From contig MGDH01000018.1 of the NCBI GenBank assembly GCA_001790855.1, forward strand, positions 14,207 to 78,206: a stretch of 64,000 nucleotides of DNA. Direction: 5' to 3'. The stretch's first letter is position 1. Every line of letters begins with the position of its first letter. Shown piece after piece: positions 34,446 through 52,811 of the stretch. The DNA comes from Candidatus Schekmanbacteria bacterium RIFCSPLOWO2_02_FULL_38_14. Its GTDB lineage: Bacteria; Schekmanbacteria; GWA2-38-11. The notes beneath the pieces are model-generated. The model was given only the letters and a program-made list of their open reading frames with translations. It did no database searches and had not been told where the DNA came from. The translations under genes were made by a program, and so were the position numbers.

Positions 34446-34949
34446 GTGGGGAAAATCCTATCTACTTTCTTTATTCTTGTTTTTATAGCTTCATTATTTT
34501 CATGCTTGAAAAGCTCAGAAGAATTACAACAGCCAATCAATTTTAATCACAAGAAACATATTGAGCAGGGAATTGAATGTGAAACCTGCCACATATACAT
34601 AAAAGAAGAAAGCTTTGCAGGACTTCCAGAGCTTCAAACCTGCCTCGACTGTCATGGGAGTCCTATAACAAAAAGCACTGAAGAGGAGAAGATAAGGAAT
34701 TTTGCAAAAAAGGGAATAAGTTTAGAATGGAAAAGAATATATAGGCTTCCTCAGCATGTATATTTCTCCCATAGAAGGCATGTAGCTTTTGCAAACTTAG
34801 AATGTCAAGTTTGTCATGGCGCAATTGGAGATGCTGTGAAGCCTCCAACAAAGCCTTTAAAGATTTTGATAATGAATGATTGCATAGATTGCCACAAGAG
34901 TTCCAAGAAAAGTAAGATAAGCGCTGATTGTATTGATTGTCATAAATAA
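34446..34949 (+). CDS. pentaheme c-type cytochrome (QrcA/ActA-like small periplasmic cytochrome)
   Basis: Signal peptide; five CxxCH (CETCH, CLDCH, CQVCH, CIDCH, CIDCH) in 167 aa. Confidence 0.8.
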   Translation: MGKILSTFFILVFIASLFSCLKSSEELQQPINFNHKKHIEQGIECETCHIYIKEESFAGLPELQTCLDCHGSPITKSTEEEKIRNFAKKGISLEWKRIYRLPQHVYFSHRRHVAFANLECQVCHGAIGDAVKPPTKPLKILIMNDCIDCHKSSKKSKISADCIDCHK

Positions 34950-34991
34950 AAAGATGATTACACAGATTATTTAGGAAGATTATACAGATTT

Positions 34992-37451
34992 ATGAAGAGA
35001 AGAAGATTTTTAAAGACATTGGGTGGAACATCAGCAGGGGTAGCACTCTCTTCTTGCACCAAGATAGAGAGTTTAAACAAAAAAATTGTAACTATAATTC
35101 CTGCAAAAGAAGAAGTAGTAGTTCCTAAAGGAGTAGAGAAATGGGTGATTTCATCATGTGGGCAATGCTCTGGAGGTTGCGGAATTAAGGTAAGACTTAT
35201 AAATGAAAGAGCTGTAAAAATTGATGGTAATCCACTGCATCCTGTAAACCAGGGAACCCTTTGTCCTAAAGGACAGTCAGGGTTACAGCTCCTTTATAAT
35301 CCAGACAGATTAAAAAGTCCTCTGAAAAGAAAAGGAAATAGGGGAGCAAATCAATGGAAAAAAATTAGCTGGGATGAGGCTGCTAAATTAGTGGTTGAAA
35401 AACTAAAAGAGATTCGAACAAATGGAAAAGCTCACCAACTAACTTTTCTATCAGGCGAATGTGGTGGTCTGATGAAAAGTTTGAGCAAAAGATTTTTAGA
35501 ATCATTCGGCTCCCCAAATTATTTTGATATTTCTGGTTCAATGGATGGTAATGACCAGGGGCCCTCAGACAGTCTTTTTGCAACTCAGGGTATCAGAAAA
35601 AATCCAGTCTATAATCTGGAAAAAACTAAATTAATTCTTTCCTTCGGCTCTAATTTTTTGGAATCTTTTTCATCTCCTGTACAGATTTCCCAGGCATATG
35701 GCTATTTCAGGAGAGAAAGGACAGGCTCAAGAGCCAAACTTATCCAAATAGACTCCAGGCTTTCAGTCACTGGCGCAAAAGCTGACGAATGGATTCCAAC
35801 AAACCCGGGCACATTAGGCGCTCTTGCACTGGGACTCGCTTATATAATTATAAAAGAGGACCTTTATGACAAGGATTTTATAGATGAAGACAGTTTTGGT
35901 TTTGAAGATTTCAAAGATGATAATGGCACATTACATCAAGGTTTTAAAAGAATGGTGCTTGATGAATATACATCCGGTGTAGTCTCCAAAATCACAGGAG
36001 TCTCAACAAATAATATAATAAGGCTTGCCAGAGAATTTGCCACAAATAAACCTGCTATTGCCATAAGTGATAAAATAGGAATATATGATCAGATAGCAAT
36101 TCATTGCCTCAATGCTTTATGCGGGAATATTGATGTTGAAGGAGGGGTTTTAGTACCTAGGGATGTCCCTCTTAAGAGCTTGCCTCCTTTTAAGCTTGAT
36201 GAGATCTCAAAAAAAGGCTTGTCAATGACAAGGGTCGACGGAAGTAACCCGGAGCAATCTTCTGTTTTTTTTAACCCTTTTAAATTTATTATAGAAGCAA
36301 ATGCAACAGGCAATCCCTATAAAATAGATGCCATTTTTATTTACAACTCAAATCCTTTATTTACTTATCCTGATAAAGAAAATTTGAAAAAATTCTTTGC
36401 AGAAATACCTTTCATCTTAAGTTTTTCCTCTTATCTTGATGAAACTTCAGAAATGGCTGATTTAATCTTACCAGATCACACCTATCTGGAAAAATGGGAA
36501 GATGTCCAGACAAACACCCTGAACGGATACCCTGTTTTAGGAATAAGACAACCTGTAGTCAGCAAAATTAATGATACCATGCACACTGGTGACTTTTTAC
36601 TGAAGGTTTCAAAAGAGATAGGGGGTCCGGTGGCGCAGGCTTTACCTTGGAATGATTTTAAAGATTTTCTTTCCTATAGCATTGAAGGAATTTACGAAAA
36701 TCAGAGTGGTAATATATTTGGACCAAAATTTGAAGAAGCATGGGTCCGCCTCCTTGAAAAAGGGGGATGGAGTATTCCTTTGCATTCATCTTTTGAAGAG
36801 TTCTGGAAAAAGGTATTAGAAAAGGGCGGCTGGTGGGATTCGATGTACTATTTTAATGAATGGAGCAGAATTTTTAATACCTTATCAGGAAAATTTGAAT
36901 TCTATTTTCAAACCCTGAAGAATGAGGTTGATAAAACAAAGGATGAAAGAAGAAAAGAGATATTTAAAATGTTAGGAGGGACTAAAGACAAAGGAAAAGA
37001 GGATAAAATATATATGCCCCATTATGAGGCAAAAGCAGAAACAAATGGAAAGAGTTATCCCTTTTATCTTAACGTCTATAAACTTATGTCGCTTTCAGGT
37101 TTAAATGTAACGAATCAGCCATGGCTTCAAGGAATTCTGGCAGTCAATGTTCCAATTAAATGGAATACATGGGTTGAAATAAATCCAGAAACTGCAAAGA
37201 AAATGGCTATATCTGAAGGAGACTTGGTTGTTGTAGAATCAATAAAAAGGAAAATAATTGTTTATGCTCATTTATATGAAGGTGCAATGCCTGAGGTAGT
37301 AAATATTCCTTTTGGGTTAGGGCATTCAGCAAATGGACGGTGGGCTAAAGATATAGGTAAGAATCCAGTTTCTATCCTGGAAGAATTTTCAGATCCGTTA
37401 ACTGGAAACTTCTTCAAAGATTACACACGGGTAAAAATCTATAAGGCTTAA
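34992..37451 (+). CDS. molybdopterin-oxidoreductase-family subunit, TAT-exported (PsrA/QrcB/ActB1-like)
   Basis: Twin-arginine signal MKRRRFLKTLGG; N-terminal CxxCxxxC...C FeS-0 motif (CGQCSGGCG...CPKG); 819 aa MopB fold. Confidence 0.8.
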   Translation: MKRRRFLKTLGGTSAGVALSSCTKIESLNKKIVTIIPAKEEVVVPKGVEKWVISSCGQCSGGCGIKVRLINERAVKIDGNPLHPVNQGTLCPKGQSGLQLLYNPDRLKSPLKRKGNRGANQWKKISWDEAAKLVVEKLKEIRTNGKAHQLTFLSGECGGLMKSLSKRFLESFGSPNYFDISGSMDGNDQGPSDSLFATQGIRKNPVYNLEKTKLILSFGSNFLESFSSPVQISQAYGYFRRERTGSRAKLIQIDSRLSVTGAKADEWIPTNPGTLGALALGLAYIIIKEDLYDKDFIDEDSFGFEDFKDDNGTLHQGFKRMVLDEYTSGVVSKITGVSTNNIIRLAREFATNKPAIAISDKIGIYDQIAIHCLNALCGNIDVEGGVLVPRDVPLKSLPPFKLDEISKKGLSMTRVDGSNPEQSSVFFNPFKFIIEANATGNPYKIDAIFIYNSNPLFTYPDKENLKKFFAEIPFILSFSSYLDETSEMADLILPDHTYLEKWEDVQTNTLNGYPVLGIRQPVVSKINDTMHTGDFLLKVSKEIGGPVAQALPWNDFKDFLSYSIEGIYENQSGNIFGPKFEEAWVRLLEKGGWSIPLHSSFEEFWKKVLEKGGWWDSMYYFNEWSRIFNTLSGKFEFYFQTLKNEVDKTKDERRKEIFKMLGGTKDKGKEDKIYMPHYEAKAETNGKSYPFYLNVYKLMSLSGLNVTNQPWLQGILAVNVPIKWNTWVEINPETAKKMAISEGDLVVVESIKRKIIVYAHLYEGAMPEVVNIPFGLGHSANGRWAKDIGKNPVSILEEFSDPLTGNFFKDYTRVKIYKA

Positions 37452-37465
37452 TCAAGAGGTATTTT

Positions 37466-38152
37466 ATGGCAAAATGGGGAATGGTTATAGATTTGGATAA
37501 ATGTACAGCCTGTCAAGCCTGCGTAGTTGCATGCCAGGCTGAAAACAACATTCCTATAGCAGGACCAAAAGAGACCCAGATGGGTAGGGCAATCCACTGG
37601 ATAGAACTAATATCTCATATAGAGGGGGAGTATCCTAACACCAAAATCAAGCTTATACCCAGACCCTGTTTCCATTGCGATGAACCCCCATGTATCAAGG
37701 TTTGTCCTGTAAGGGCTACTTATAAAAGCGAGGAAGAGGGAATAGTTGGACAGATATTCCCCAGGTGTATAGGCTGTCGTTACTGTACCACAGCATGTCC
37801 TTATACGGTACGGTATTTTAACTGGGAAAAACCCGAATGGCCGGAAATGATGAAAAACCTTCTTAATCCTGATGTATCAGTGAGGCCAAAAGGTGTTGTT
37901 GAGAAATGCAGTTTCTGCTATCACAGGCTGGTAAAGGCAAGAGAAAAAGCAAAAGCAGAAGGAAGAGATTTCTCTCCTGATGAATATATACCAGCATGTG
38001 TCCAAACATGTCCAAGCAAGGCAATGTATTTTGGTGATTTAAGCAATCCCAACAGTAAAGTCTCAATTCTGGCAAGAACCAACAGAGCTTTCAGAATTCT
38101 GGAAGATTTGGGAACAGAACCAAAGGTTATTTATCTCTCGGAAGGGGAATAG
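37466..38152 (+). CDS. 4Fe-4S ferredoxin-type electron-transfer subunit (PsrB/NrfC/QrcC-like)
   Basis: Four Cys clusters (CTACQACVVAC, CFHCDEPPCIKVCP, CIGCRYCTTACP, CSFC...C). Confidence 0.85.
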   Translation: MAKWGMVIDLDKCTACQACVVACQAENNIPIAGPKETQMGRAIHWIELISHIEGEYPNTKIKLIPRPCFHCDEPPCIKVCPVRATYKSEEEGIVGQIFPRCIGCRYCTTACPYTVRYFNWEKPEWPEMMKNLLNPDVSVRPKGVVEKCSFCYHRLVKAREKAKAEGRDFSPDEYIPACVQTCPSKAMYFGDLSNPNSKVSILARTNRAFRILEDLGTEPKVIYLSEGE

Positions 38153-38153
38153 G

Positions 38154-39488
38154 ATGGAGTTAAAGAACGCTAAAGTAAAAGATGAAGATCATATCCTCTT
38201 AGATCCAATCCTCAAAATAGGAAAGGGTTTTTATCTGACGGTAGTTATATTAGGGTCCTTTGTCCTGTTAGCAATTTATGCCTATATTACTCAATTCCAG
38301 AAAGGACTGGGGGTAACCGGATTAAATAGACCAACCTTCTGGGGAGTTTATATTACTAATTTTGTATTTTTCATAGGAATAAGCCATGCCGGCACTTTAA
38401 TATCAGCTATCCTGAGAATTGCTCAGGCTGAATGGAGAAGAGCAATTACAAGGTCTGCAGAAGTAATAACTGTTCTTGTTCTTTTCTTTGGAGTTGGGAA
38501 TATTCTGATTGATTTAGGAAGACCTGATAGGCTTTTTAATATGCTACTGTACGGCAGGTTTCAGTCACCACTCCTGTGGGATTTTGTTAGCATTTCAACC
38601 TATCTAACAGCAAGTACAATATACCTTTATCTTCCTTTAATTCCGGATATAGCCATTTTAAGAGATACTTCCGGCAAAAGAAAATGGCTATATAGTGTAT
38701 TAGCTTTAGGCTGGAAAGGAACAGAAAAGCAGCATCAAATTTTAGAAAAAGCCATAGCCATAATGGCAATATTAGTAATACCTATAGCAATTTCAGTTCA
38801 TACAGTGGTCTCTTTTGTTTTTGCAATGACAATTCAACCTATGTGGCATAGCGCAATTTTTGGCCCTTATTTTGTAGCAGGGGCGATATTTTCAGGTATT
38901 GCTGCTCTTATCATCGCCATGGCAATTATTAGAAAAGTTTATAAACTTGATAATTATCTGAAGGATATACATTTCAATAATCTGAGTCTCCTTTTGCTGG
39001 TAATGAGCTGTCTCTGGTTCTATTTTACATTCTGTGAATATATAACTGTCTTTTACGGCAGTGAACCAGTTCATTTAGCTGTCTTGTACTCTAAATTCAG
39101 CGGTGAATATGCCCTATATTTCTGGACTATGGTCGCAACCTGTTTTGTAATACCATTTTCTATCCTGTCAAACAGCAAGACCAGAACAATTACAGGTAGT
39201 GTAATAGCATCAATATCTGTAACCATTGGTATGTGGCTTGAACGTTTTACAATAGTTGTTCCAACCCTTGTTAATCCCAGACTCCCCTATGAGCGAGGCA
39301 TTTATCACCCAACATGGGTTGAGGCAGCTATAACAGCAGGCTCTCTCTCATTGTTCATTCTTCTATATATGATATTTACTAAGTTTTTCCCTATTGTATC
39401 TATCTGGGAAATAAAAGAGGGGAGAGAAAAAGGTGTAGCTGAGGTACAGGAGAGGATTAAAACTTACCTCCCTGGGTCTGAGACTTGA
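38154..39488 (+). CDS. NrfD/PsrC-family quinone-interacting integral membrane subunit (QrcD/ActC-like)
   Basis: 444 aa, ~10 TM helices; start overlaps upstream stop (translational coupling). Confidence 0.8.
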   Translation: MELKNAKVKDEDHILLDPILKIGKGFYLTVVILGSFVLLAIYAYITQFQKGLGVTGLNRPTFWGVYITNFVFFIGISHAGTLISAILRIAQAEWRRAITRSAEVITVLVLFFGVGNILIDLGRPDRLFNMLLYGRFQSPLLWDFVSISTYLTASTIYLYLPLIPDIAILRDTSGKRKWLYSVLALGWKGTEKQHQILEKAIAIMAILVIPIAISVHTVVSFVFAMTIQPMWHSAIFGPYFVAGAIFSGIAALIIAMAIIRKVYKLDNYLKDIHFNNLSLLLLVMSCLWFYFTFCEYITVFYGSEPVHLAVLYSKFSGEYALYFWTMVATCFVIPFSILSNSKTRTITGSVIASISVTIGMWLERFTIVVPTLVNPRLPYERGIYHPTWVEAAITAGSLSLFILLYMIFTKFFPIVSIWEIKEGREKGVAEVQERIKTYLPGSET

Positions 39489-39501: not shown

Positions 39502-40731
39502 ATGTTTCAAATGGGATTTTTGAAATTAGTCTTTAGAAAATGGCGAATGAACTACAAGGTGTTCTTTTTAATATTAATCATATTTTCTTTTCTGCCATTA
39601 AATATTCATTCTGAGAAGAATACTAATCTTTTCCCTGAAAACCCTCTGGAAGGCTCGAAGATATTTGTGATTAAAGGTTGTGTAAAGTGTCATGCCATTA
39701 AGGGAGAGGGAGGAAATATAGGGGCAGATCTAGGCAAAGTCACCTTTAAAGATACATTGCTTGATATGGCAGGAATTATGTGGAACCATTTTCCGTTTAT
39801 GAGTGAAAAAATGGAGGAGGAGAAGATTGACTGGCCAAAGTTTTTAAGTGGGGAAATGGCAAGTCTAATAGGCTACCTTTATTATATAAATTATTTTGAT
39901 GAGCCAGGCAATACTAAAAAGGGAGAAAATTTATTTTCAGTAAAAGGGTGCGCGCAATGCCATGGCATAGAAAAAAAAGGTGGCAAACCAGGACCAAGTT
40001 TAAGTAAGTTTAAACGTGACTACTCACCAATCTTCATGGCACAAGCTATGTGGAATCATGGTTCTGAAATGGAGGCATCCATGAAGAAATTAGGGATTAA
40101 GAGACCTCAGTTTAATGATAAAGAGATGGCTGACCTATCTGCTTATATTAGAAAAGAAGCAAGAGGGGAAAAGAAGGGATATGGTTTTATGTTGCCTGGA
40201 AATCCAAAAGAGGGGAAACAACTTTTTAACAAAAAAGGATGCATACACTGTCATGCCATTTCAAATGAAGGTGGAAACATAGGGCCAGACCTTGGCAAAA
40301 AGGCAGAAGAGCTGCACAGGAGTCTAAATGAAGTAGCAGGCATTATGTGGAATCACTGGCCTAATATGTATAGAAAAATGATAGAGATGAGAATAGAGGT
40401 TCCAAGTTTTTCAGATAAAGAGATGGCAGACATAATAGCATATCTCTATTTTCTTGGATACTTTGATGAAAAAGGAGATATGAAAAAGGGGTCTATAATT
40501 TTCAATGAGAAGGGGTGTATTAAATGTCATTTTTTTGATGGAAAACAAATGATAGGGCCTGATTTGAGAAAATTATCTAATACTACTTCTTCCATAGAAG
40601 TTGTTACAGAGATGTGGAACCATGCCTCAAAGATGAAAAATAAAATGGCAGAGCTTAAAATCCAATGGCCCAAATTCAAAAAAGGCGAGGTAGCAGACCT
40701 TATGCAATATCTCAGGTCTTTAAAAAAATAA
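39502..40731 (+). CDS. tetra-domain c-type cytochrome (four class-I monoheme repeats, each with CxxCH...GG...MWNH)
   Basis: CVKCH, CAQCH, CIHCH, CIKCH each followed by GEGG/KGG and an MWNH motif ~25 residues later; N-terminal membrane anchor or signal. Confidence 0.75.
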   Translation: MFQMGFLKLVFRKWRMNYKVFFLILIIFSFLPLNIHSEKNTNLFPENPLEGSKIFVIKGCVKCHAIKGEGGNIGADLGKVTFKDTLLDMAGIMWNHFPFMSEKMEEEKIDWPKFLSGEMASLIGYLYYINYFDEPGNTKKGENLFSVKGCAQCHGIEKKGGKPGPSLSKFKRDYSPIFMAQAMWNHGSEMEASMKKLGIKRPQFNDKEMADLSAYIRKEARGEKKGYGFMLPGNPKEGKQLFNKKGCIHCHAISNEGGNIGPDLGKKAEELHRSLNEVAGIMWNHWPNMYRKMIEMRIEVPSFSDKEMADIIAYLYFLGYFDEKGDMKKGSIIFNEKGCIKCHFFDGKQMIGPDLRKLSNTTSSIEVVTEMWNHASKMKNKMAELKIQWPKFKKGEVADLMQYLRSLKK

Positions 40732-40854: not shown

Positions 40855-41115
40855 TTGAATCAGCAGAGAGAAGTAATAAAAAATAAATCTGTAAATATTT
40901 TTCAATTACTGATGCTATTTGCTTTCTACTTGTTTGTTGGATCCATAATTGCCTTTGTTGTCAATGGAATTTATAATGCATTGGAAAATAATGATGCTTT
41001 TATGTATTCTATAGTTATAGGAGCAATAGTTATTCCTGTATTTTTGACTTTAACTATTCTGGTTACATTAGTTTTCTGGGTCATCGTGAGAGAAGGCAGG
41101 AAGGATATGAGGTAG
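40855..41115 (+). CDS. small 2-TM membrane protein (possible complex-associated subunit)
   Basis: 86-aa ORF with two hydrophobic helices between the two paralogous cytochrome genes; weak evidence only. Confidence 0.3.
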   Translation: MNQQREVIKNKSVNIFQLLMLFAFYLFVGSIIAFVVNGIYNALENNDAFMYSIVIGAIVIPVFLTLTILVTLVFWVIVREGRKDMR

Positions 41116-41120
41116 AGTTT

Positions 41121-42347
41121 ATGAAGAATCTAAAGAAAATTACCATCTATATGTTTTCAGTTTTTTTGATAGTAGGGTCATTATTAACCGTAGGAATAAA
41201 TGTTGTTTGCAGCACAGAAAAATACCTTTTGCCTGGAGATGCTAAAAAAGGGTGGCAGAGTTTTTTCACCAAAGGGTGCATCAAATGCCATTCTGTTTGG
41301 GGAGAGGGAGGTACAGCCGGTCCTAATCTTGGCATTACACCCTCTAAGCATTTGACTGAAGCAGAGCTTACAGCAGCCATGTGGAACCATGCTCCGGCAA
41401 TGTGGGAGAAAATGTTAGCAAAAGGGATAGATTTTAAAGCCATAAGCCAGGAAGAAATGGCTGATATATTCGCATTTCTCTACTTTATTAGATATATGGA
41501 TGAGCCAGGTAATAAGGAAAATGGAAAAGAGTTGCTGGCCACAAAAAAATGCACTAATTGCCATGCAATTCATGGAAAAGGAGGCAGAGTAGGGCCCGAG
41601 CTGACAAAATGGGGAACATATACTAATCCAATTCTGTGGGCGCAGATGATGTGGAATCATGCACCCCAGATGGAAGAGGAAATGAGGAACAGAGGAATAA
41701 CCTGGCCAATATTTGGTGAAAACGAGATGGTTGATATTATTGTTTATGTAAAGAGTGTCAGTAAATCGGGAGATAAAATTTTTATTTCACCAGGTGACTC
41801 AAAAGACGGTAAAATACTGTTTTCTAAAAAGGGTTGCAGCCATTGCCATTCTACCGAGACAGGTAGCAAAAAGGATGGACCAAATCTTGGAAGGGATTTA
41901 AGAAAAAAAGAATCTTTCCCAAGGACTATTACTCAGGTTGCAGGCCTTATGTGGAACCATTCTCCTGAAATGTGGAAAGAGATGAAAGAAAAGGGAATGA
42001 AGAGGCCAGAGCTCAATCCTCAAGAGATGGCAGATTTAATCGCATATCTTTTTTCTCTCCAATATTTTGATGAGCAAGGAAACAGAGAAAAAGGAGAAAA
42101 GGTATTTAAAGAAAAATATTGCATAAAGTGTCATACAGTGAATGGCAAAGGCGGTCTGAAAGGTCCTGACCTTAAGGAATGGCGCAGGCAGGTTTCGCCA
42201 ATTTCCATGGCGCAAGCTATGTGGAACCATGGTCCTTCAATGTTGGGAGAAATGAAAAAAATGGGCTTTAAATGGCCAAAGTTTGAAGGAAATGAGATAG
42301 TGGATTTGATGGAATATTTAAGAGAACTGGCTAATAAAACACTTTAA
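41121..42347 (+). CDS. tetra-domain c-type cytochrome, paralog of 39502-40731
   Basis: CIKCH, CTNCH, CSHCH, CIKCH with the same four-repeat layout and MWNH motifs; 408 vs 409 aa. Confidence 0.75.
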   Translation: MKNLKKITIYMFSVFLIVGSLLTVGINVVCSTEKYLLPGDAKKGWQSFFTKGCIKCHSVWGEGGTAGPNLGITPSKHLTEAELTAAMWNHAPAMWEKMLAKGIDFKAISQEEMADIFAFLYFIRYMDEPGNKENGKELLATKKCTNCHAIHGKGGRVGPELTKWGTYTNPILWAQMMWNHAPQMEEEMRNRGITWPIFGENEMVDIIVYVKSVSKSGDKIFISPGDSKDGKILFSKKGCSHCHSTETGSKKDGPNLGRDLRKKESFPRTITQVAGLMWNHSPEMWKEMKEKGMKRPELNPQEMADLIAYLFSLQYFDEQGNREKGEKVFKEKYCIKCHTVNGKGGLKGPDLKEWRRQVSPISMAQAMWNHGPSMLGEMKKMGFKWPKFEGNEIVDLMEYLRELANKTL

Positions 42348-44298: not shown

Positions 44299-46203
44299 AT
44301 GAATGAAAAGAAATACAAAGTAGAGATTCCAGATTTAGAATATTACCAGCGTGTAATTAATTGCCAGTATGCCTGTCCAGTTAAAACTGCTGCTGGAAGC
44401 TATGTTACTGCAATTACAGATAGGGAATATGAAAAGGCTTATGATTTTGCAAGAATGCCAAATCCCTTTGTTTATGTCTGTGGAAGGATATGTGACCATC
44501 CATGTGAAACAGCCTGCAGGCGTGGTGCTATTGATGAGCCAATAGCAATATGCGCCCTTAAGAGAACAGCCACTGACCACCATAATTTGAGTTTAGGTCA
44601 TTGGCTAGGCTTGCCTCTTGAAAAGAAAAGAGAGGAAAAGGTAGCTGTTATTGGCGCAGGACCAGCAGGTTTATCAGCAGCCAATGATTTAGCAAGGCTC
44701 GGTTATCAGGTTACTGTTTTTGAAGCATCACCTGTCGCTAGTGGAATGTTATATCTTGGTCTGCCAGGTTATCGCCTGCCAAGAGATATAATCAAATTAG
44801 AGGTTGATTCCATATTAAACCTTGGGGTTGAGCTTAAGACAAATACTCCTTTGGGTGAAGGGTTGAATTTAGAGGATTTAAAGAGGCAAAAATATAAGGC
44901 AATTTTTATTGCTACAGGATGCACAAAAAGCAGGGATTTAAATATAGAAGGAGCTAATCTTGACGGGGTCTTAAAGGGTGTTGATTTTCTCTTAAACATT
45001 AACCTCGGTTATAGGGTTGAACTTGGGAAGAGGGTCATTGTAATTGGTGGTGGAAATGTGGCAATGGATGTGGCTCGTTCAGCTATCAGAAAAGGAACAG
45101 AGCTTGAATCTTTAAGCCCTGAGGAGATGAAAGATGCTTTGGAAAAGGCAAGAAAGGCATTACAGCAATTGGTTGAGAGTGAAGAGGAGAGAGAAAAGGA
45201 GATGCACATTGCAATGGATGTTGCAAGGTTAGCTCTGAGAAAAGGGGCAAAGGATGTGCATTTAGTCTGCCTTGAATCAAGAGAAGAGATGCCTGCCCAT
45301 GCTTGGGAGACAGAAGAAGCATTCGCAGAGGGGATTGTGTTTCATAATAGACTCGGGCCAAAAAGGATTTTAGGAAGAGATGGAAAGGTTACAGGCATTG
45401 AGACCATTAGATGCTCGTCGGTTTTTGATAGTGAGCATAGATTTAATCCAACCTTTATCAAAGGGACAGAAGAATTTATTGAGGCTGATTCAATTATTTT
45501 GGCTATTGGCCAGGCAGCAGATATCTCTTTTTTCAAGAAAGAGGATGGCATTTCAATAACTCGCCAGGGTTTGATAGAAGTTAATCCTGACACCCTCGCA
45601 ACAACAGCAGATGGAATTTATGCAGGTGGAGATATAGCTTTTGGGCCAAGAAATGTTATTGCAGCAATTGCAGATGGACAGAAGGCTGCAAGGTCAATTG
45701 ACTCTTATTTAAGAGGAGAGAGCAAGAAAAGGATTCGGGCAAGAATGGCAGTGATTAAGGATCATAAGATGCATGAAGGATATGAGAGAATCAAAAGGCA
45801 GAAAATGCCTACATTGCCACTTAATAGAAGGATTGGCATTGCTGAGGTAGAATTAGGTTTTTCTGATGAACAGGCAATAGAAGAAGGGAAGCGATGCCTC
45901 AGATGCAATATAAATACAGTCTTTAATGGTAATAAATGTATCCTGTGTGGTGGGTGTGTAGATATATGTCCTGAATATTGCTACAGAATGGCAAAAATTG
46001 AAGAGTTAGAAGAGAATGAGGTTCTTGAAAAGTTAGTTGAAGCAAGATATGGCATTTCTTTTGAAAAATTAAAAAGTGAAAGTGGTTTAAACAGGGCTAT
46101 GATAAAGGATGAAGAGAAATGCATTAGATGCGGCCTATGTGCTGAGCGCTGCCCTACTGGTGCTATTACTATGGAGCTTTTTGAATATAGTGAAAGGATT
46201 TAA
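44299..46203 (+). CDS. NfnB/GltD/SudA-like FAD- and NAD(P)-binding iron-sulfur oxidoreductase with C-terminal 2x[4Fe-4S] ferredoxin domain
   Basis: N-terminal Cys cluster (CQYACP...C), FAD motif VAVIGAGPAGLSAANDLARLGYQVTVFE, second Rossmann VIVIGGGNVAMDVA, C-terminal CILCGGCVDICP and CIRCGLCAERCP. Confidence 0.75.
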   Translation: MNEKKYKVEIPDLEYYQRVINCQYACPVKTAAGSYVTAITDREYEKAYDFARMPNPFVYVCGRICDHPCETACRRGAIDEPIAICALKRTATDHHNLSLGHWLGLPLEKKREEKVAVIGAGPAGLSAANDLARLGYQVTVFEASPVASGMLYLGLPGYRLPRDIIKLEVDSILNLGVELKTNTPLGEGLNLEDLKRQKYKAIFIATGCTKSRDLNIEGANLDGVLKGVDFLLNINLGYRVELGKRVIVIGGGNVAMDVARSAIRKGTELESLSPEEMKDALEKARKALQQLVESEEEREKEMHIAMDVARLALRKGAKDVHLVCLESREEMPAHAWETEEAFAEGIVFHNRLGPKRILGRDGKVTGIETIRCSSVFDSEHRFNPTFIKGTEEFIEADSIILAIGQAADISFFKKEDGISITRQGLIEVNPDTLATTADGIYAGGDIAFGPRNVIAAIADGQKAARSIDSYLRGESKKRIRARMAVIKDHKMHEGYERIKRQKMPTLPLNRRIGIAEVELGFSDEQAIEEGKRCLRCNINTVFNGNKCILCGGCVDICPEYCYRMAKIEELEENEVLEKLVEARYGISFEKLKSESGLNRAMIKDEEKCIRCGLCAERCPTGAITMELFEYSERI

Positions 46204-46210
46204 GCAGAAG

Positions 46211-46345
46211 GGTTCGAGGATTCGAGGGTTCAAATGAAAATCAAAGTTTAAAAATAAAAAATTAAAATTTTGGTATTTGAATTTTGATATTTGATTTTTA
46301 TTTCACTTGAACCCTTGACACCTAGACCCCTTGAACCCTTTTTTG
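46211..46345. repeat. palindromic element, family A variant with GC-rich arms (gggttcgagg...cttgaaccc)
   Basis: gggttcgaggattcgagggttcaaatg...ttcacttgaacccttgacacctagaccccttgaaccc; arms match those of 15531-15668. Confidence 0.55.
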
Positions 46346-46355
46346 AGGTTAACTA

Positions 46356-46829
46356 ATGTCTAAAGACGAAAAAATAGAGGAAATTTCACGTAGATATTTT
46401 TTAGCAGCAGGATGGTCATCTCTTGGCATTATTATGGCTGGCTCAGCCGGTGCAAGCATTCGCTTCTTGCTCCCCAATGTTCTTTTTGAGCCTCCAACTT
46501 CTTTTAGAATTGGAAAGCCTGAAGACTATGCTGATGGTTCAGTAAATTTTTTTCCTGAGAGAAAGATCTTTGTAATTAAAAAAGAGAATGGAATTTTTCA
46601 AACTATCTCTGCAGTATGCACTCATCTACGTTGTATTGTGAAATGGTCAGAGACAAACAAGAATTTTGAGTGCCCCTGCCATGGAAGTATATTTGATGGG
46701 AAAGGCAGAATTATTGGTGGACCTGCTCCAACACCACTTGACTGGTATGAGATAACACTTGGAGAGGATGGTAAATTGTTCATAGATACTATGAAAGTTG
46801 TGGATAGCGGATATTATTTAAAGGTATAA
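46356..46829 (+). CDS. Rieske [2Fe-2S] iron-sulfur subunit of a cytochrome bc-type complex
   Basis: TAT-like RRYFLAAG; CTHLRC...CPCHGS Rieske boxes. Confidence 0.85.
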   Translation: MSKDEKIEEISRRYFLAAGWSSLGIIMAGSAGASIRFLLPNVLFEPPTSFRIGKPEDYADGSVNFFPERKIFVIKKENGIFQTISAVCTHLRCIVKWSETNKNFECPCHGSIFDGKGRIIGGPAPTPLDWYEITLGEDGKLFIDTMKVVDSGYYLKV

Positions 46830-46987
46830 AACATTTCTCCTCATCCTTTATCCTTCTCCCCATAGGGGAGAAGGCAGGTTGAGGGGGAGAAGAAAAACAT
46901 TCAACCCCAGAAGGGGTTTCCCACAGGAAATTGTGGGAGAGAATAAGAGGGACGACAGAGACGTCGTTCCCTACATGATAGGATAAT

Positions 46988-48472
46988 ATGGGGAATATAT
47001 TAAGCAAGTGGACTGAAAGAATTACACAAAACAGAATCTGGAAATCAATTTTCAGACATGGCTATCCTGATACAGAGCTTAATCAATCCCTTGTCATGTA
47101 TACCAATCTTTTTCTTCATATTCAACCTGTAAAGGTTCATAAAAATGTTTTAAGACCATCATATACCTTAAGCCTTGGTTTGATCTCTTTTATACTATTT
47201 CTTGTCCTTGTAATAACAGGGATATATTTAATGTTCTATTATGTCCCTTCAGTTGACAGGGCTTACAATGATATGAAGGAGCTTCAATTTGTTGTCTCCT
47301 TTGGCATATTTTTGAGAAACCTGCACCGATGGTCAGCTCATGGAATGGTGGCTGCAGTATTTTTACATATGTGCAGGGTTTTCTATACGGCTTCTTATAA
47401 ACCTCCAAGAGAATTTAACTGGGTCTTAGGAGTTATACTTTTAATAGTGACATTTGGTTTAAGTTTTACAGGCTATCTTCTTCCCTGGGACCAGCTTGCT
47501 TTCTGGGCAATTACAGTGGGTACAAGCATTGCCAGCTATGCACCAATTATTGGGCAGAAACTACGCTATTTTCTGTTAGGTGGGAATATTGTTGGGCAGA
47601 ATGCTCTTTTGCGGTTTTACGTTCTCCACTGCGTTGTTCTGCCATCAGTTGCTGCTGTCTTAATAGGAATACATTTCTGGCGGATAAGAAAGGATGGAGG
47701 GTTATCAAAGCCTGCAGAAAAATTAAAACAAGAAGAAAAGTTTGAAGAGCTGCAGGAAGAAGGGCTTTCCCCAAAAGGAACAAGTAAGACTTATGGTTTA
47801 ATGGAACTTGTAAAAGGTGCTACTATTCCTGTAGAACAGGAGCCCGAGAATGAGATAATGTCATGGCCACATTTGATCTTTAGAGAGTTCCTTGTCGCCA
47901 TAGTTGTTTTAGTAGTGCTTATTGCTATTTCCTTATTTTTTAATGCACCTCTTGAGGAGCTTGCAAATCCTTCAGAGCCTCCGAATCCAGCAAAGGCTCC
48001 ATGGTATTTCTTAGGACTTCAGGAGCTTGTATCTTATTCAGCCTTTATAGGAGGTGTAATTACACCTTTTCTTGTTGTTTTTGCGCTCCTGATGGCAATA
48101 CCTTATATAGATTACAGAGCAGAAGATGTGGGGATATGGTTTTCCTCTAAGAAGGGTCGTTTAATAGCATTAATTACAGCAACCCTGACATTAATAAGTA
48201 TTCCTGTCTTGATTTTTCTTAATATGAAATACGGGATTAGAGTTTTCTACCCTGATGCTCCTTCAATTCTTGTGGATTTGATAAATCCTGGAACAATTCT
48301 GATTGGAGTTACAGCAGTTATCTCAATTATTATAGGGGTCCGCACTAAGTCATGGAGGTTAGCTGCCATGATGATATTTACCTCCTTTGTAACTGGTTTT
48401 ATTGTGTTGACTGTTATTGGAACATTATTCAGGGGTCCTAACTGGGAGTTTGTTTTCCCATGGAAAGGATAA
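46988..48472 (+). CDS. cytochrome b (fused b6 + subunit-IV-like, 494 aa) of bc-type complex
   Basis: Conserved cytochrome b N-terminus ([12 protein letters not shown] ... [10 protein letters not shown]) and C-terminal PEWY-region equivalent ([10 protein letters not shown]); additional C-terminal TM helices. Confidence 0.85.
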
Positions 48473-48508
48473 AAAAATATATAGGAGTCTGTCAGAGAAC
48501 CCTTTTTT

Positions 48509-48659
48509 GTCATTGCGAGCGACTCCCTCGATATTGCTCGGGACAGGCTCCGGGAGCGTGGCAATCTCAAATCCCCCTATATCCCCCTTTTCCCTGCCTG
48601 CCGGTAGGCAAGTAAAGGGGGAGAAAAGAGGGATTGCTTTGGATTCGCCTCGCAATGAC
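48509..48659. repeat. nested palindromic element ~150 nt: family D termini, then GCAATCTC/GAGGGATTGC, then family B C-runs, then family C core
   Basis: gtcattgcgagcgactccc...gtggcaatctcaaatccccctatatcccccttttccctgcctgccggtaggcaagtaaagggggagaaaagagggattgctttggattcgcctcgcaatgac. Confidence 0.6.
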
Positions 48660-48713
48660 AAGAAAACTCATATTATTTAGAATTTCGAATTTAGGATTTT
48701 AGATTTTAAATAC

Positions 48714-49808
48714 ATGGTTAAATATTTTACATTTTTTAGTATTATTCTCCTGGTCTTTTTTTCTCTTGCCATCTTTAAGGATTATGATAGAGAGTGGAAG
48801 GATTTCCAGAAGAGGTTCTACGAGATTGAATCAGAGAGAGGAAAAAACGCTGAAGAGAAAAAAGTGATAAGAAATACTCCTTTGAGAATAAAACAGATAG
48901 TGTTAGAGGATTTGAATAGAGTTGATAGGTGCACAACCTGCCATCTCGGAATGGAATATGAGAAAAAGTCTTACAAAAAGAATCCATATAAGTCTCATCC
49001 CGACCCAACAATGCATCCCTTTGATCAATTTCCCTTTGATAGATTTGGATGCACCATCTGCCATGAAGGGCAGGGAAGAGCTACTACAAAGGATGATGCC
49101 CATGGTGATGTGGATTTCTGGGATAAGACCATGCTAAGGGGTATTTATCTGCAAGCCTCATGTCTAAAATGTCATGATGACCCTGACCTTAAGGGTGCTG
49201 AGATTGCAATGAAAGGGAAAAAACTTTTTGAGGAAAATGACTGCTATGAGTGTCATAAAGTAGGAGATAAAGGAGAAAGTGTAGGACCTGAGCTTACAAA
49301 GGAAGGATTAAAGACAAAACACCATTTTGATTTTACCCGTGTAAAGGGCAAGCACACTATTGCTAACTGGCAATTCGAGCATCTAAAAAATCCGGAAGCA
49401 GTTGTTCCTGATTCAGTGATGCCAAATTTGGAACTCAGTGATGAAGATGCAAGAGCCTTGACTATATATCTCTTAAGCCTTACTGATGAAAAGGTGCCAG
49501 AAGAATACATAGCGTCTCTAAAAAGAGGTCCTATCCTTGCATTAAGTAGAAAAGTTACAAAGCCTGAGATGAGTCCAGGTGAAAAGCTTTATATAGAGAT
49601 GAACTGCTATTACTGCCATAAGATAAAAGGGGAAGGAGGTGATGGAGCACCTGATTTAACTGGAGTTGGCGCAAGGCATGATGAAGATTGGCTTATAAAA
49701 CATTTTGACACTCCGCGGTCAATAAGTCCTCATTCTTTTATGCCTGACTATAAACTTACACCCGAGGAGATAAAGGCTCTGACAGATTTTATGTTGACTT
49801 TGAAATAG
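48714..49808 (+). CDS. pentaheme c-type cytochrome associated with the Rieske/cyt b genes (C-terminal class-I monoheme domain)
   Basis: N-terminal TM anchor; CTTCH, CTICH, CLKCH, CYECH, CYYCH; C-terminal CYYCHKIKGEGGDGAPDL...FMPDY typical class-I cytochrome c. Confidence 0.75.
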   Translation: MVKYFTFFSIILLVFFSLAIFKDYDREWKDFQKRFYEIESERGKNAEEKKVIRNTPLRIKQIVLEDLNRVDRCTTCHLGMEYEKKSYKKNPYKSHPDPTMHPFDQFPFDRFGCTICHEGQGRATTKDDAHGDVDFWDKTMLRGIYLQASCLKCHDDPDLKGAEIAMKGKKLFEENDCYECHKVGDKGESVGPELTKEGLKTKHHFDFTRVKGKHTIANWQFEHLKNPEAVVPDSVMPNLELSDEDARALTIYLLSLTDEKVPEEYIASLKRGPILALSRKVTKPEMSPGEKLYIEMNCYYCHKIKGEGGDGAPDLTGVGARHDEDWLIKHFDTPRSISPHSFMPDYKLTPEEIKALTDFMLTLK

Positions 49809-50000: not shown

Positions 50001-52790
50001 ATGATTGAAGAAGTATTTTTGATACTGAAAAGAAAATGGTTTATATGTGCATTGGCTTTTCTTTTTGCCATTTCAGCATCCTATGTTTTTGAGAAAGAAG
50101 CCAGTGCAGCAAAAACTTATAACATAGTGGTTAAGATAAAGTCAAATAAAGCCACTAACAGAACAGGCGTAGCGGTAGAGGTCACAGGAGGAGATTTAAC
50201 AACACCCAAGACTGCTACAACGAAAAAAACAGGTATTGTAAAGTTTACAAAACTTGCTAAAGGAACTTACACTGTTACTCCTGCAAAGGAAGGCTATACC
50301 TTTGACCCTGAATCAAAGCCTGTTACATTTGCAACAAGGAGAACAGTAAATGTTGTTTTTAAGTCAACAGAGGTTGTAATTCCTGTTACTGAAGAGGCTA
50401 TAACTCTGTCAACATCTGCAAACGGGACTCACTTTGCTGCGGGTGAGAAACCAATAATCACCATTTCTCTGCCCGACCTGTCCAGCCGCAGTGACTATTC
50501 GCAGCTACGCCTGGTGGTTTATGGTCCACAGGAAACGACCAAGACTAAAACAGCGGTGAATCTGCTCAATGCGTCCACTGACCGTTCCTTAGCTAACACG
50601 GGCCCGCATCACTACATTGACCTCGTTACAGACACCAATGTTCAGCTCAATGATAATATTCTGACCTATACGCTCCAGCCAATCACAGATGAAGAAGCAG
50701 GGACATACACAGCAAGTTTGTGGGCTGTTTTGAAAGATGACCCTTCTGTGCAGTCGTTCCCGCTTGCTGATTTCCAGATTGGAACAGCTACTGCTGAGAC
50801 GCAAATAGTAGAGAGGGAAAATTGTTCTGTCTGCCATAAGGGTGCTGATAGCGGGAAATATTACTTCCATCACATAGATCCTCGTACCGCCGGTTCATCT
50901 GGATACCCATCAATTGACTCGTGGGCAGTGAGAACGTGCAAGAGCTGCCATAACACAGATGGCTATGCAGCATACACTGATCCCGCTAATCCCTCTGCCA
51001 CTGATGGCTCTAATAAAATTCCGGATCCGATTGTAAAGCGTGTACATGGTGTTCATATGGGAGAGGAGTTAAAGAACGCGCTCAACACTGACGCGACGAC
51101 AGGTATTTTCAAAAACTACACAAGTGTGGTATTTCCTGCAAATGTCAAGAACTGCACTATGTGTCACGTGGATGATAAATGGAAGACCACACCTTCACGT
51201 CTTGCTTGTGGCGCCTGCCATGATAATATCTGGTTTGGTGATCCGGCAGCCCTTCCTTCAGGACAAGAGGCACATCCTGGTTTACAACAGGATAGCGATA
51301 CCGGATGCTCTACCTGCCACCCTGCAGATGGTTCATGGACCAAGGGTTCGGCACCTGCACCCATTTCAACGGTTCACAAGGTTGATTCGCCAGCTTACAA
51401 GTATACTGTAGAGATTAGCCTAAGCGCACCGGCAAATGAGACTCACTATGTTGCGGGCGAGGCGCCTCAGGTAACAATAACAATCAAAGATGCTACCACT
51501 GGTGCCACAATTGACCCGAACACGCTAACAGAGACCGCCTTCAGCCGTGCCTCTCTCTACGTCTCCGGCCCGCGTGAAAATACAAAACCTGTGCTTACCA
51601 CCTCGGCCAAGGGCCTTGGAGCCGTCCGTGCTTTGGCGACGAACAGCAAGGATGGACCCTGGGATCTGTCAGGCGACCCTACCTTTATCATTGGCATTGA
51701 CGGTACCTCCCGCACGGTAACGGCTGCGGCAAGTAATTTCGCAAATCCGGCAGCTGCGACCCAGGCAGAGGTCATTACATGGCTGAAAAAGGCGCTTCCT
51801 GATGGCATTGGCGATGTGGCGACAGTCTCTGCGTCTGGCACAACAAAAGTCACGATTAAAAGCAATACCAGAGGCTCGACATCCAAGGTCGAGATCTTTG
51901 CAAGTTCAGTTGCAACGGCTATGGGGTGGACCGTTGGTGCGAAAACCCCTACACCTCGTTCCTATGCCAGCAATGACTTCCGCGTCCGCAAAGATTCTTT
52001 TGATGAGGATCCGAAGGTGAGTCGTTCCACCACTGCAGTTACGTACCAGTTAGACGATGTTGCCGGTCTGACCTCAGGCACCTATACTGCTTTTGCCCAG
52101 ATGAGTCCGACATCTGGTTTTGGCGGCTCGGCGGTGGTCAATTTCCAAGTGGGTGGGGCTACAGAAGAAAAGAAGGTTGCTACAAACTGTACCAATTGCC
52201 ATGGTGATACAACAATGCACAGCACCTCCTTATCAGTGCCATTCAATCCAGACATCTGCAAGAACTGCCACGATTACAATCGTGAGGGGACTGGATATGG
52301 TTGGGCCGGCGCTCCCCCGACCGGAACGAACGGGACCTCAACGAGCGGCTGGAGCGGTTTTGGTGCCAAGCCCTTATCAAGCAGAATCCACGGTGTTCAC
52401 CGCGGTCGTTATCTGGAGCATCCTGAGGATGTAAAACCACTGTATAGGCTCGTAAGCGGGGTTGCCACGTATTGGCCTGAATACGATTTCTCTGAAGTGA
52501 TTTTCCCTCAGGATATAAGAAACTGCACCAAGTGTCACAGCGCCGATACGACCGGGACTTGGAAGACAGAACCATCTCGGTTAGCCTGTCTTGCCTGCCA
52601 CGACAACGATGAGGCAACTACCCACGGTAATCTGATGACGTATGATACGACACCTACAGATCCATGGAGCGGTGATGAGATAGAGACATGTGTTGTGTGT
52701 CATGGTTCTGGTAGGGACTTTTCTCCTGACAAGGTGCACAATATCTCGAGTCCCTATAAGCCACCGTATCTACGAGAGCCTGCAGAGTAA
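50001..52790 (+). CDS. large secreted decaheme c-type cytochrome (929 aa), mosaic composition
   Basis: Signal/anchor N-terminus, beta-sandwich N-domain. Ten CxxCH sites: CSVCH, CKSCH, CTMCH, CGACH, CSTCH, CTNCH, CKNCH, CTKCH, CLACH, CVVCH. Internal duplicated module (CxxCH...WKT.PSRLAC.ACHDN occurs twice). Bases ~50420-52790 are ~55% GC vs ~33% elsewhere. Confidence 0.8.
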   Translation: MIEEVFLILKRKWFICALAFLFAISASYVFEKEASAAKTYNIVVKIKSNKATNRTGVAVEVTGGDLTTPKTATTKKTGIVKFTKLAKGTYTVTPAKEGYTFDPESKPVTFATRRTVNVVFKSTEVVIPVTEEAITLSTSANGTHFAAGEKPIITISLPDLSSRSDYSQLRLVVYGPQETTKTKTAVNLLNASTDRSLANTGPHHYIDLVTDTNVQLNDNILTYTLQPITDEEAGTYTASLWAVLKDDPSVQSFPLADFQIGTATAETQIVERENCSVCHKGADSGKYYFHHIDPRTAGSSGYPSIDSWAVRTCKSCHNTDGYAAYTDPANPSATDGSNKIPDPIVKRVHGVHMGEELKNALNTDATTGIFKNYTSVVFPANVKNCTMCHVDDKWKTTPSRLACGACHDNIWFGDPAALPSGQEAHPGLQQDSDTGCSTCHPADGSWTKGSAPAPISTVHKVDSPAYKYTVEISLSAPANETHYVAGEAPQVTITIKDATTGATIDPNTLTETAFSRASLYVSGPRENTKPVLTTSAKGLGAVRALATNSKDGPWDLSGDPTFIIGIDGTSRTVTAAASNFANPAAATQAEVITWLKKALPDGIGDVATVSASGTTKVTIKSNTRGSTSKVEIFASSVATAMGWTVGAKTPTPRSYASNDFRVRKDSFDEDPKVSRSTTAVTYQLDDVAGLTSGTYTAFAQMSPTSGFGGSAVVNFQVGGATEEKKVATNCTNCHGDTTMHSTSLSVPFNPDICKNCHDYNREGTGYGWAGAPPTGTNGTSTSGWSGFGAKPLSSRIHGVHRGRYLEHPEDVKPLYRLVSGVATYWPEYDFSEVIFPQDIRNCTKCHSADTTGTWKTEPSRLACLACHDNDEATTHGNLMTYDTTPTDPWSGDEIETCVVCHGSGRDFSPDKVHNISSPYKPPYLREPAE

Positions 52791-52811
52791 ATAAAGCAAG
52801 GTGGATTCGTT

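Follow-up and report, generated by a model that had tools for sequence, protein, structure and literature searches.

A probably non-catalytic MopB subunit that keeps its FS0 cysteines in a split-ActB module of the ACIII-Qrc clade from Candidatus Schekmanbacteria

Alternative complex III (ACIII) and the Qrc complex are among the described systems closest to the locus treated here, a four-gene module for a multihaem cytochrome, a MopB-like subunit, an iron-sulfur (FeS) protein and an NrfD-family membrane protein. The ActB subunit of R. marinus ACIII carries a cleaved twin-arginine translocation (Tat) signal, and its domain B1 is without prosthetic groups (PMC5928083). Redox cofactors were reported to be absent from QrcB of D. 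vulgaris (PMC13059093), and a quinone-proximal [3Fe-4S] cluster was reported in both ACIII (PMC5928083) and Qrc (PMC6303296). In iron oxidisers a split ActB1 with the motif CX2CX3CX27C was placed, together with actB2, in an “ACIII-Qrc clade” (PMC4643136), and ActB and Arr/Arx were described as sister groups (PMC10100899). The module lies within 64,000 nt of contig MGDH01000018.1 of Candidatus Schekmanbacteria bacterium RIFCSPLOWO2_02_FULL_38_14 (GCA_001790855.1, positions 14,207-78,206, forward), and this whole stretch of DNA is called the window. The locus probably encodes a quinone:cytochrome c module of the ACIII-Qrc clade with a split ActB, in which the MopB subunit would act as a non-catalytic scaffold and export vehicle that has retained the [4Fe-4S] site FS0. 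As its Mo ligand and active-site residues have been lost, MopB is most likely part of the wiring or the scaffold, and not a new sulfur or arsenic reductase.

An earlier reading of the same DNA, hereafter the original prediction, had proposed a Qrc/ACIII-type module in the order cytochrome-MopB-FeS-NrfD. This is confirmed by Pfam and by the coordinates, which agree exactly for all four open reading frames (ORFs), each on the + strand (Table 1). The order was found again in 57 of 83 related loci, with a pentahaem cytochrome upstream of MopB there, and is therefore no chance arrangement. The identical MopB protein and the same gene set are present on 21 public contigs, including GCA_001790785.1 and GCA_001790675.1, and the closest named homologue of MopB, at 75% identity, is again from Candidatus Schekmanbacteria. 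The best NCBIfam models for the cytochrome, MopB and FeS proteins are QrcA, QrcB and QrcC, and all four Qrc equivalog cut-offs are missed (QrcA 104/180, QrcB 310/440, QrcC 316/400 and QrcD 41/570 bits). Three subunits are regarded as ACIII-like because their best matches among solved structures are ActA, the C-terminal domain of ActB, and ActC. The module is neither canonical Qrc nor canonical ACIII, and it fits the published “variations on the same theme”.

The argument against catalysis is carried mainly by the loop that would be expected to hold the Mo ligand, MopB residues 177-196. The alignment called for in the original prediction returned Met184/Asp185 at the ligand column and no conserved ligand: MAFFT pairs ArrA Cys193 with Met184 and PsrA Cys173 with Asp185, and in the HMMER alignment the HSSVC of ArrA, which contains Cys193, stands opposite the stretch ISG-SM. 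After an invariant GSPN the segment is hypervariable, unequal in length and interrupted by indels in sets of 39 and 120 close homologues. No part of the family is less conserved than this loop: over residues 177-196 the top-residue frequency averages 0.20 with 19% gaps, compared with a frequency of 0.51 for the whole protein, and the AlphaFold pLDDT (predicted local distance difference test) is <50 at residues 183-189. A Cys at the ligand position is missing in 119 of the 120 close homologues, the sole exception being the Nitrospinota protein P0118, in 57 of the 58 MopB partners drawn from the 80 loci of a species-genome scan, and in 128 of 134 full-length representatives (present in 6, or 4.5%); a conservation table of 57 family sequences holds none in this column. 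The largest clade reads IDNQFQWEG, which places a Trp at the ligand position. Across the family samples aligned, no conserved Cys, Sec, Ser or Asp was found there. Asp185 as a Nar-type ligand was dropped as a family feature, the aligned column being mostly gaps or Glu, and selenocysteine was rejected because the MopB ORF has no in-frame stop.

Residues that surround the substrate in the solved enzymes have changed as well. The GRY of the ArrA arsenate site (R165, Y166) has become GEC, and H189, S190 and K198 are also changed, the ArrA stretch HSSVC..K corresponding to ISG-SM..D/Q in the window protein. No Arg equivalent to PsrA R332/ArrA R374 is present, this column being a gap in one alignment and Lys in the other, and the Asp of the PGTD motif is Leu in the window MopB and is kept in only 5 of 58 family members. 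Judged from the sequence, the catalytic Mo site of MopB has probably been lost. With the ligand, the substrate residues and the PGTD Asp gone, the view of the subunit as “more like a true Mo/W-bisPGD enzyme” of the Psr/Phs/Ttr type finds no support. The same holds for the reductase or oxidase of polysulfide, thiosulfate, tetrathionate or arsenate-like substrates that the original prediction had suggested: the Mo-coordinating residue is lost in the alignment, and a rough tree places the protein inside the ligand-less radiation with true QrcB, in substance the two outcomes that it had named as speaking against this proposal.

To calibrate these losses, the nearest representatives of 50%-identity clusters were used, for which a search of 1.84 billion representatives returned 150 clusters, 134 of them full length. 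Two of the representatives, P0315 and P0371, pass the NCBIfam QrcB cut-off of 440 bits with 508 and 501 bits (window 310) and served as true QrcB controls; their FS0 columns read CGVS and SGIS, and both have the RR motif. On the ArrA model, relatives with HS(S/N)(I/L)C (P0276, P0352 and L074, the last used as the positive control) scored 416-467 bits, the window protein 295 and its relative in locus L005 304. Among the 144 columns in which ArrA and PsrA are identical, the window MopB keeps 85, the true QrcB 68-76 and the Cys-keeping relatives 89-103, while the ligand-less representatives keep 77 on average (range 61-96). Motif retention in true QrcB is therefore close to that of the window protein, and the general MopB motifs and fold provide no argument for a cofactor. 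In a rough neighbour-joining tree, made without support values, the basal grade consists of ArrA and the Cys-keeping sequences, and the window MopB lies, together with true QrcB, inside a large ligand-less radiation.

The fold itself is well preserved. Pfam recognises Molybdop_Fe4S4 (59.8 bits), Molybdopterin (126.5 bits) and Molydop_binding (38.3 bits), and the AlphaFold2 model (pLDDT 79, predicted template-modelling score 0.82) has the four-domain fold of molybdoenzymes, for which Foldseek gave template-modelling (TM) scores of 0.78 to ArrA and 0.70-0.77 to PsrA. Against PDB chains the protein reached 250 bits with ArrA, 153 with PsrA and 52-62 with the N-terminal domain of ActB. The cut-offs of the NCBIfam enzyme models were all missed (PhsA 301/694, ArrA 295/1600 and TtrA 100.5/1750 bits). 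Across related loci MopB shares only 27-52% identity with its window counterpart, where FeS reaches 58-75% and NrfD mostly 55-76%; of these three MopB evolves fastest, with the cytochrome about as divergent and NrfD among the slowest. Such a divergence, faster than that of the FeS and NrfD partners, would be unexpected for a catalytic subunit.

Both the FS0 motif CxxCxxxC...C and the leader RRRFLK named in the original prediction are present in MopB. The four FS0 Cys are invariant in the 39 aligned homologues and in 58/58 MopB partners from other phyla, and all four are retained in 122 of the 134 full-length representatives (91%). The mean top-residue frequency is 0.67 in the FS0 domain, compared with 0.51 for MopB as a whole. 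A Lys follows the fourth FS0 Cys in the window protein (CPKG), and a basic residue is missing at this position in 11 of 58 family members. A cluster of the FS0 type is also kept in a cofactor-less MopB domain in complex I, where it is cluster N7 of subunit NuoG, and clusters that lie off the electron pathway, N7 among them, can be conserved for stability alone. It does hold that keeping FS0 sets the subunit apart from canonical QrcB and ActB, since P0315 and P0371 lack the motif and the literature agrees. FS0 in a split ActB1 is, on the other hand, already published for iron oxidisers, and there is nothing in it to surprise specialists on ACIII or Qrc.

The start of MopB, MKRRRFLK, agrees with RRxFLK, and the Pfam TAT_signal model gave 16.4 bits, under its cut-off of 22.7. 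The twin-arginine RR is nearly invariant in the 39 homologues and present in 123 of the 134 representatives (92%), so that FS0 and Tat retention are the majority state of the ligand-less radiation. As a mark that would set MopB apart from cofactor-less relatives the leader does not serve, because R. marinus ActB and the QrcB representatives also carry Tat or RR signals. Where the leader ends in the lipobox-like L-S-S-C, other clades have IGGC, VSGC or LSGC, and the largest clade has no Cys there; some members of the family may be Tat-exported lipoproteins.

Among solved structures, the remaining three subunits match those of ACIII best. The cytochrome matches Pfam Cytochrome_C7 with 53 bits and the ActA chains 8k9e_A, 6lod_A and 6f0k_A with 89, 88 and 76 bits. 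The FeS protein matches Fer4_11 with 62 bits, and among PDB chains the C-terminal domain of ActB (6f0k_B, 197 bits) ranks above ArrB (141) and PsrB (111); all 16 Cys of its wire toward FS0 are retained. Its Cys group III, which we take from DmsB and NarH to be that of the quinone-proximal cluster, reads CIGCRYC, where ActB has CIGTRYC (R. marinus) or CVGTKYC (Roseiflexus). The second Cys, retained in 66 of 70 family FeS partners, takes the place of the Thr of ActB, from which a [4Fe-4S] proximal cluster like that of Dms/Psr is predicted. The NrfD subunit matches Pfam NrfD with 121 bits, ActC chain 6f0k_C with 259 bits over residues 28-421 and 6btm_C with 235 bits, and it scores 41 bits on QrcD (cut-off 570) and 132 on DsrP. 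Ten transmembrane helices and a quinone/quinol site are ascribed to it by homology. The ActC quinol-pocket residues W82, I86, F89, L166, D169, S245 and V250 are conserved, and two others are changed family-wide: H139 is Asp in 53 of 61 family NrfD proteins, and an aliphatic residue (Val, Ile or Leu) replaces D253 in 55 of 61, the window protein having H139D and D253V.

From these parts a working model can be sketched. The MopB-like protein would be exported in a folded state through the Tat system and would carry the 4x[4Fe-4S] subunit along, as is known from the assembly of iron-sulfur molybdoenzymes. The FeS subunit lacks a signal peptide, its N-terminus leading directly into the first Cys group, and it has to cross the membrane folded; the Tat leader of MopB would therefore be needed for export with or without Mo. 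The pentahaem lipoprotein would presumably be exported separately and fitted with its haems in the periplasm, like other c-type cytochromes. By homology with ACIII, electrons would pass between the menaquinone/menaquinol site of the ActC-like subunit and the proximal FeS cluster, and from there branch into the haem wire of the ActA-like cytochrome, reaching finally the two four-domain cytochromes c whose genes follow the module. Flow from quinol to cytochrome c is the best guess, and the reverse, Qrc-like direction is possible. FS0 in MopB could be a structural, off-pathway cluster comparable to N7, or else the end of the FeS wire. We infer the co-export, the electron path, its direction and the absence of a pterin cofactor from these comparisons.

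Several observations weigh against this interpretation and must be set beside it. Purifying selection on the FS0 Cys is strong, and it is not obvious why a pure scaffold would need it. MopB keeps, besides the four-domain fold, the motifs ADLILPDH..LE.W, NP and N374...GG as well as domain IV, and with its TM score of 0.78 to ArrA it is much less degenerate than domain B1 of ActB (52-62 bits). A few family members (L007/P0118 and L074) do carry a Cys exactly at the ligand position, and arsenite oxidase holds its bis-pyranopterin guanine dinucleotide (bis-PGD) without any protein ligand. Retention of the molybdopterin guanine dinucleotide (MGD) sites was judged by column identity, a proxy for mapped MGD-contact residues, and the placement in the tree is that of a topology without support values. 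Of the three charged residues that are conserved in the quinol pocket of ActC, two are replaced (H139D, D253V); together with the [4Fe-4S] proximal cluster, these changes mean that the quinone chemistry may differ from that of both ACIII and Qrc. A tblastn search of the window gave no second NrfD paralogue (ActF), and no recognisable homologues of ActD or ActE were found in the window. The direction of electron flow and the physiological partners, finally, are tentative.

Much of the same evidence has to be weighed for a working Mo/W-bisPGD catalytic subunit of the Psr/Phs/Ttr/Arr type, acting on a periplasmic sulfur or arsenic compound with the cytochromes as extra wiring. The Tat leader, the invariant FS0 motif with its following Lys (CPKG) and the full four-domain fold, nearest to ArrA (250 bits, TM 0.78), are what such an enzyme would have. 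Its scores on PhsA (301 bits) and ArrA (295) are about equal to that on QrcB (310), Asp185 can be imagined as a Nar-type ligand, and rare relatives (L007/P0118, L074) retain the ligand Cys. Catalysis is nevertheless judged very improbable, given a hypervariable loop with indels and no conserved ligand, in which the largest clade has a Trp where the ligand would stand, the loss of the ArrA substrate residues and of the PGTD Asp, a motif retention near the level of true QrcB, enzyme equivalog cut-offs that are missed 2- to 5-fold, the fastest evolution among the three core subunits, a gene cluster with no chaperone or molybdenum cofactor (Moco) gene, and a position in the ligand-less radiation of the unsupported tree. 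A genuine Qrc, which would account for the gene order QrcABCD and for the three best NCBIfam models, could also be supported by the dsr genes in one Candidatus Schekmanbacteria genome (PMC6018805) and by similar four-gene sets in metagenome-assembled genomes (MAGs) that were read as Qrc (PMC9324843). All four subunits remain below the Qrc cut-offs, however, and QrcD is matched with 41 of 570 bits while ActC reaches 259. FS0 is present, the proximal motif is of the 4Fe-4S and not the 3Fe-4S type, and the neighbours are class-I cytochromes c, Rieske/cytochrome b and GltD-like genes, not hydrogenase, formate dehydrogenase or cytochrome c3. Five haems are encoded in the cytochrome, whereas six were reportedly found for Qrc by Venceslau in 2010. 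The family also occurs in phyla such as Gemmatimonadota, Nitrospinota and Poribacteria, which to our knowledge are not sulfate reducers, and the assignment to Qrc proper is considered unlikely.

A further possibility is that MopB is non-catalytic and still redox-active, FS0, with or without a ligand-free pterin, serving as a third electron port in a branched hub toward GltD-like, Rieske or cytochrome b genes. The invariance of the FS0 Cys over >15 phyla, the conservation of all 16 Cys in the wire toward it and the repeated co-location with such genes would be in keeping with this, and the role of FeS2-4 in ACIII has been called elusive (PMC5928083). Yet 11/58 have no basic residue following the fourth FS0 Cys, no docking partner was identified, and off-pathway clusters such as N7 can be kept for stability. 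True QrcB, moreover, has lost FS0 while Qrc is a functional menaquinone reductase (PMC13059093, PMC6303296), and a port at FS0 is given only a slim chance. Similarly doubtful is the broader proposal that a ligand-less, FS0-bearing MopB still holds bis-PGD without a protein ligand, or uses FS0 as a port, as a surviving intermediate from Arr/Psr to ACIII/Qrc within a branched hub of GltD-like, Rieske and cytochrome b proteins. If it were true, the dominant state of a radiation of >15 phyla would be a functional intermediate between Arr/Psr-type enzymes and ACIII/Qrc.

Table 1. Features of the module and of the genes that follow it, in window positions.
Feature	Position	Strand	Size	Basis or remark
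ActA/QrcA-like pentahaem c-type cytochrome, probable lipoprotein	34446-34949	+	167 aa	five CxxCH; lipobox LFSC
MopB-like subunit (ActB1/QrcB-like)	34992-37451	+	819 aa	PF04879, PF00384, PF01568
Twin-arginine leader MKRRRFLK of MopB, ending in lipobox-like L-S-S-C	34992-35057	+		read from sequence
FS0 [4Fe-4S] motif C56-x2-C59-x3-C63-x27-C91, then P-K-G	35157-35264	+		predicted from sequence
Degenerate former Mo-ligand loop, MopB residues 177-196, FDISGSMDGNDQGPSDSLFA	35520-35579	+		HMMER and MAFFT alignments
Four-cluster FeS subunit (ActB2/QrcC-like)	37466-38152	+	228 aa	16 Cys, four ferredoxin-type groups
Cys group III of the FeS subunit, CIGCRYC	37766-37786	+		predicted [4Fe-4S] at the quinone-proximal cluster
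NrfD-family integral membrane subunit, ActC-like	38154-39488	+	444 aa	Pfam NrfD
Tetrahaem protein with four class-I cytochrome c domains	39502-40731	+		four CxxCH; Cytochrom_C 124 bits in 3 stretches
Conserved protein with two apparent hydrophobic (transmembrane) stretches	40855-41115	+	86 aa	no Pfam match
Second tetrahaem, four-domain class-I cytochrome c	41121-42347	+		four CxxCH; Cytochrom_C 119 bits in 4 stretches

Downstream of the module the window is rich in further redox proteins. In 56 of the 83 related loci the gene after NrfD encodes a multi-domain class-I cytochrome c, and the second tetrahaem protein is likewise conserved in 56 of 83. The four-domain protein at 39502-40731 is a probable redox partner of the module; a PDB search with it gave generic class-I matches only, with no significant match to ActE. 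The 86-aa ORF is 45% identical to a counterpart in the distant locus L006 (16111-16377), a PDB search with it gave no hit, ActD included, and it may represent an unrecognised small membrane subunit. After the second tetrahaem protein come an ExtKL-like multihaem cytochrome and a c554-like cytochrome. The stretch 44299-49808, directly downstream, holds a GltD-like NAD(P)H-binding FeS flavoprotein of 634 aa, a Rieske protein (46356-46829), a cytochrome b of 494 aa (46988-48472) and, at 48714-49808, a multi-domain cytochrome c. Neighbours of the GltD-like, Rieske or cytochrome b type recur beside the module in no fewer than 9-12 other loci (L005, L013, L020, L026 and L036 among them). The arrangement is reminiscent of what has been proposed for anammox bacteria, namely Rieske/cytochrome b complexes that include an NAD(P) oxidoreductase subunit. 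Farther along, in 50001-54679, comes an MtrC/OmcA-like multihaem cytochrome of 929 aa (PF22113, 93 bits), then a protein that combines an EB_dh haem-binding domain with a TIG domain; the local GC content there is 0.45-0.48, compared with ~0.36 elsewhere, and this may be a component for extracellular electron transfer or else a segment that was acquired.

Upstream, the module is preceded by a HisKA_3 kinase and a LuxR-type regulator. The suggested check for Moco genes and chaperones was made on the window ORFs, all but a few of which were scanned: MoaA, MoaC, MoeA, MobA and a TorD-like chaperone were not identified, nor were a hydrogenase or a formate dehydrogenase, and genes for Moco biosynthesis or a chaperone of the TorD type are absent from the module cluster itself. 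The MoeB/ThiF homologue at 13293-14096, which the original prediction had brought forward in this context, proved uninformative: it lies 21 kb away and is generic, matching the MoeB subfamily with 317 bits (cut-off 266) and the ThiF, MoeZ and UbaA models comparably, and it was set aside as Moco evidence. An MFS transporter on the - strand at 8896-10203, unrelated to the module, matches MamH with 276 bits (cut-off 300) and MamZ with 224.

The distribution of the family was followed by an FeS-alignment profile search of genome contigs, which gave 80 loci, all from MAGs of this family; the scan returned no Desulfovibrio qrc loci, canonical act loci or QrcB. The loci belong to Thermodesulfobacteriota, Nitrospirota, Nitrospinota, Zixibacteria, Ignavibacteria, Aminicenantes, Calditrichota, Acidobacteriota, Gemmatimonadota, Chloroflexota, KSB1, Planctomycetota, Rokubacteria, Poribacteria and others; the ligand-less radiation is found in >15 mostly uncultured phyla. 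A search for full-length ActB with a fragment of R. marinus B2 returned short fragments only, and ActB B1 was compared by bit score.

Some loci depart from the common pattern. Locus L007 (7711-10182; Nitrospinota MAG GCA_003696125.1), which encodes P0118, has an ActA-MopB-FeS context and an ASGCEG whose Cys stands at the position of ArrA Cys193; P0118 scores 418 bits on the ArrA model, compared with 295 for the window protein, and is regarded as a candidate for an enzyme that has stayed catalytic within an ACIII-like module. The MopB of L074 (824-5441; Bipolaricaulia MAG) reads NHSSIC and reaches 466 bits on the same model. Its FeS partner is 59% identical to that of the window, its NrfD just 32%, and no ActA-like cytochrome is present; L074 probably represents a true enzyme of the Psr/Arr type that stands at the radiation's base. 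In L005 (6555-9287) and L007 (1-2853), from two other phyla, the ACIII-like module has beside it a second, smaller set of cytochrome, FeS and NrfD genes that lacks MopB. In two long-read contigs of the European Nucleotide Archive (L088, L089) a cytochrome bd-like oxidase subunit and several cytochromes c come after a gene resembling ActA and an FeS fragment resembling ActB; ActC is absent from both, and the gene calls near the MopB-like part look broken. Their layout resembles the ACIII plus CydAA' arrangement of Nitrospirales (PMC12342949).

The loss of the ligand and the active site has practical weight, since relatives of this MopB are named “molybdopterin-dependent oxidoreductase” or “anaerobic selenocysteine-containing dehydrogenase” in their sources and others have read such gene sets as Qrc. 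It guards against inferring polysulfide, thiosulfate, tetrathionate or arsenate respiration from loci of this kind. Three states can be told apart by a simple sequence test: Cys-keeping enzymes with HSS(I/V)C, ligand-less ActB1-like proteins that keep FS0, and true QrcB without FS0. These states form a graded evolutionary series, from an Arr-like enzyme through loss of the ligand with FS0 kept to loss of FS0 in QrcB, with further degeneration in fused ActB, and this series agrees with the published sister relation of ActB and Arr/Arx (PMC10100899). The module is widespread in uncultured phyla and most likely feeds the multi-domain cytochromes c encoded downstream.

Among the known systems, ArrAB (6CZ7) and PsrABC (2VPW) are the closest solved structures to MopB itself, and they share with the window the Tat leader, FS0, the four-domain fold and a 16-Cys FeS partner. 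The window protein differs from them in having lost the Mo ligand, the ArrA residues R165, Y166, H189, S190 and K198 and the PGTD Asp, and in having no counterpart of the PsrA R332 arginine; the membrane subunit is of the ActC type and not of the eight-helix PsrC type, and a pentahaem cytochrome is added. With QrcABCD of Desulfovibrio vulgaris the module shares the gene order, the subunit types, a MopB with a Tat motif and no Mo ligand, a place in the same ligand-less radiation of the neighbour-joining tree, and three best NCBIfam models. True QrcB, in contrast, is without the FS0 Cys that the window keeps, QrcC has a proximal [3Fe-4S] as described in the literature (PMC6303296), compared here by description, where the window has a 4Fe-4S motif, the QrcD score is 41 against a cut-off of 570, and the partners are not cytochrome c3 or hydrogenase.

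The likeness to ACIII (R. marinus, F. johnsoniae and Roseiflexus; 6F0K, 6BTM, 6LOD) extends over a pentahaem ActA-like cytochrome, a four-cluster FeS module, a Tat-exported MopB-like module without Mo ligand, an ActC-like subunit with most quinol-pocket residues kept, and redox parts that are all on the periplasmic side. Whereas ActB of ACIII is fused, with a cofactor-free B1 and a B2 holding [3Fe-4S]+3x[4Fe-4S], the window has it split into two genes. Its B1 equivalent retains the FS0 Cys and is far less degenerate (250 bits to ArrA, compared with 52-62), its B2 equivalent has 16 Cys and a 4Fe-4S proximal motif, and its ActC-like subunit shows H139D and D253V. In place of ActD, the monohaem ActE and ActF, the window has two four-domain cytochromes c and the 86-aa membrane protein. 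Separate ActB1 and ActB2 subunits link it to the split-ActB clusters, namely actAB1B2CDEF of Fe-oxidising Gallionellaceae and Zetaproteobacteria, actAB1B2CDE of Nitrospirales and the “ACIIIcc” actABCEED of Caldithrix, with which orthology is suggested by setting the published descriptions side by side. In the literature such split variants count as ACIII-like. Such clusters vary among themselves, as that of Nitrospirales is without ActF and ActG and that of Caldithrix has duplicated cytochrome genes after actC; the window differs from them in having no recognisable ActD or ActE, with tetrahaem four-domain proteins as the partners downstream.

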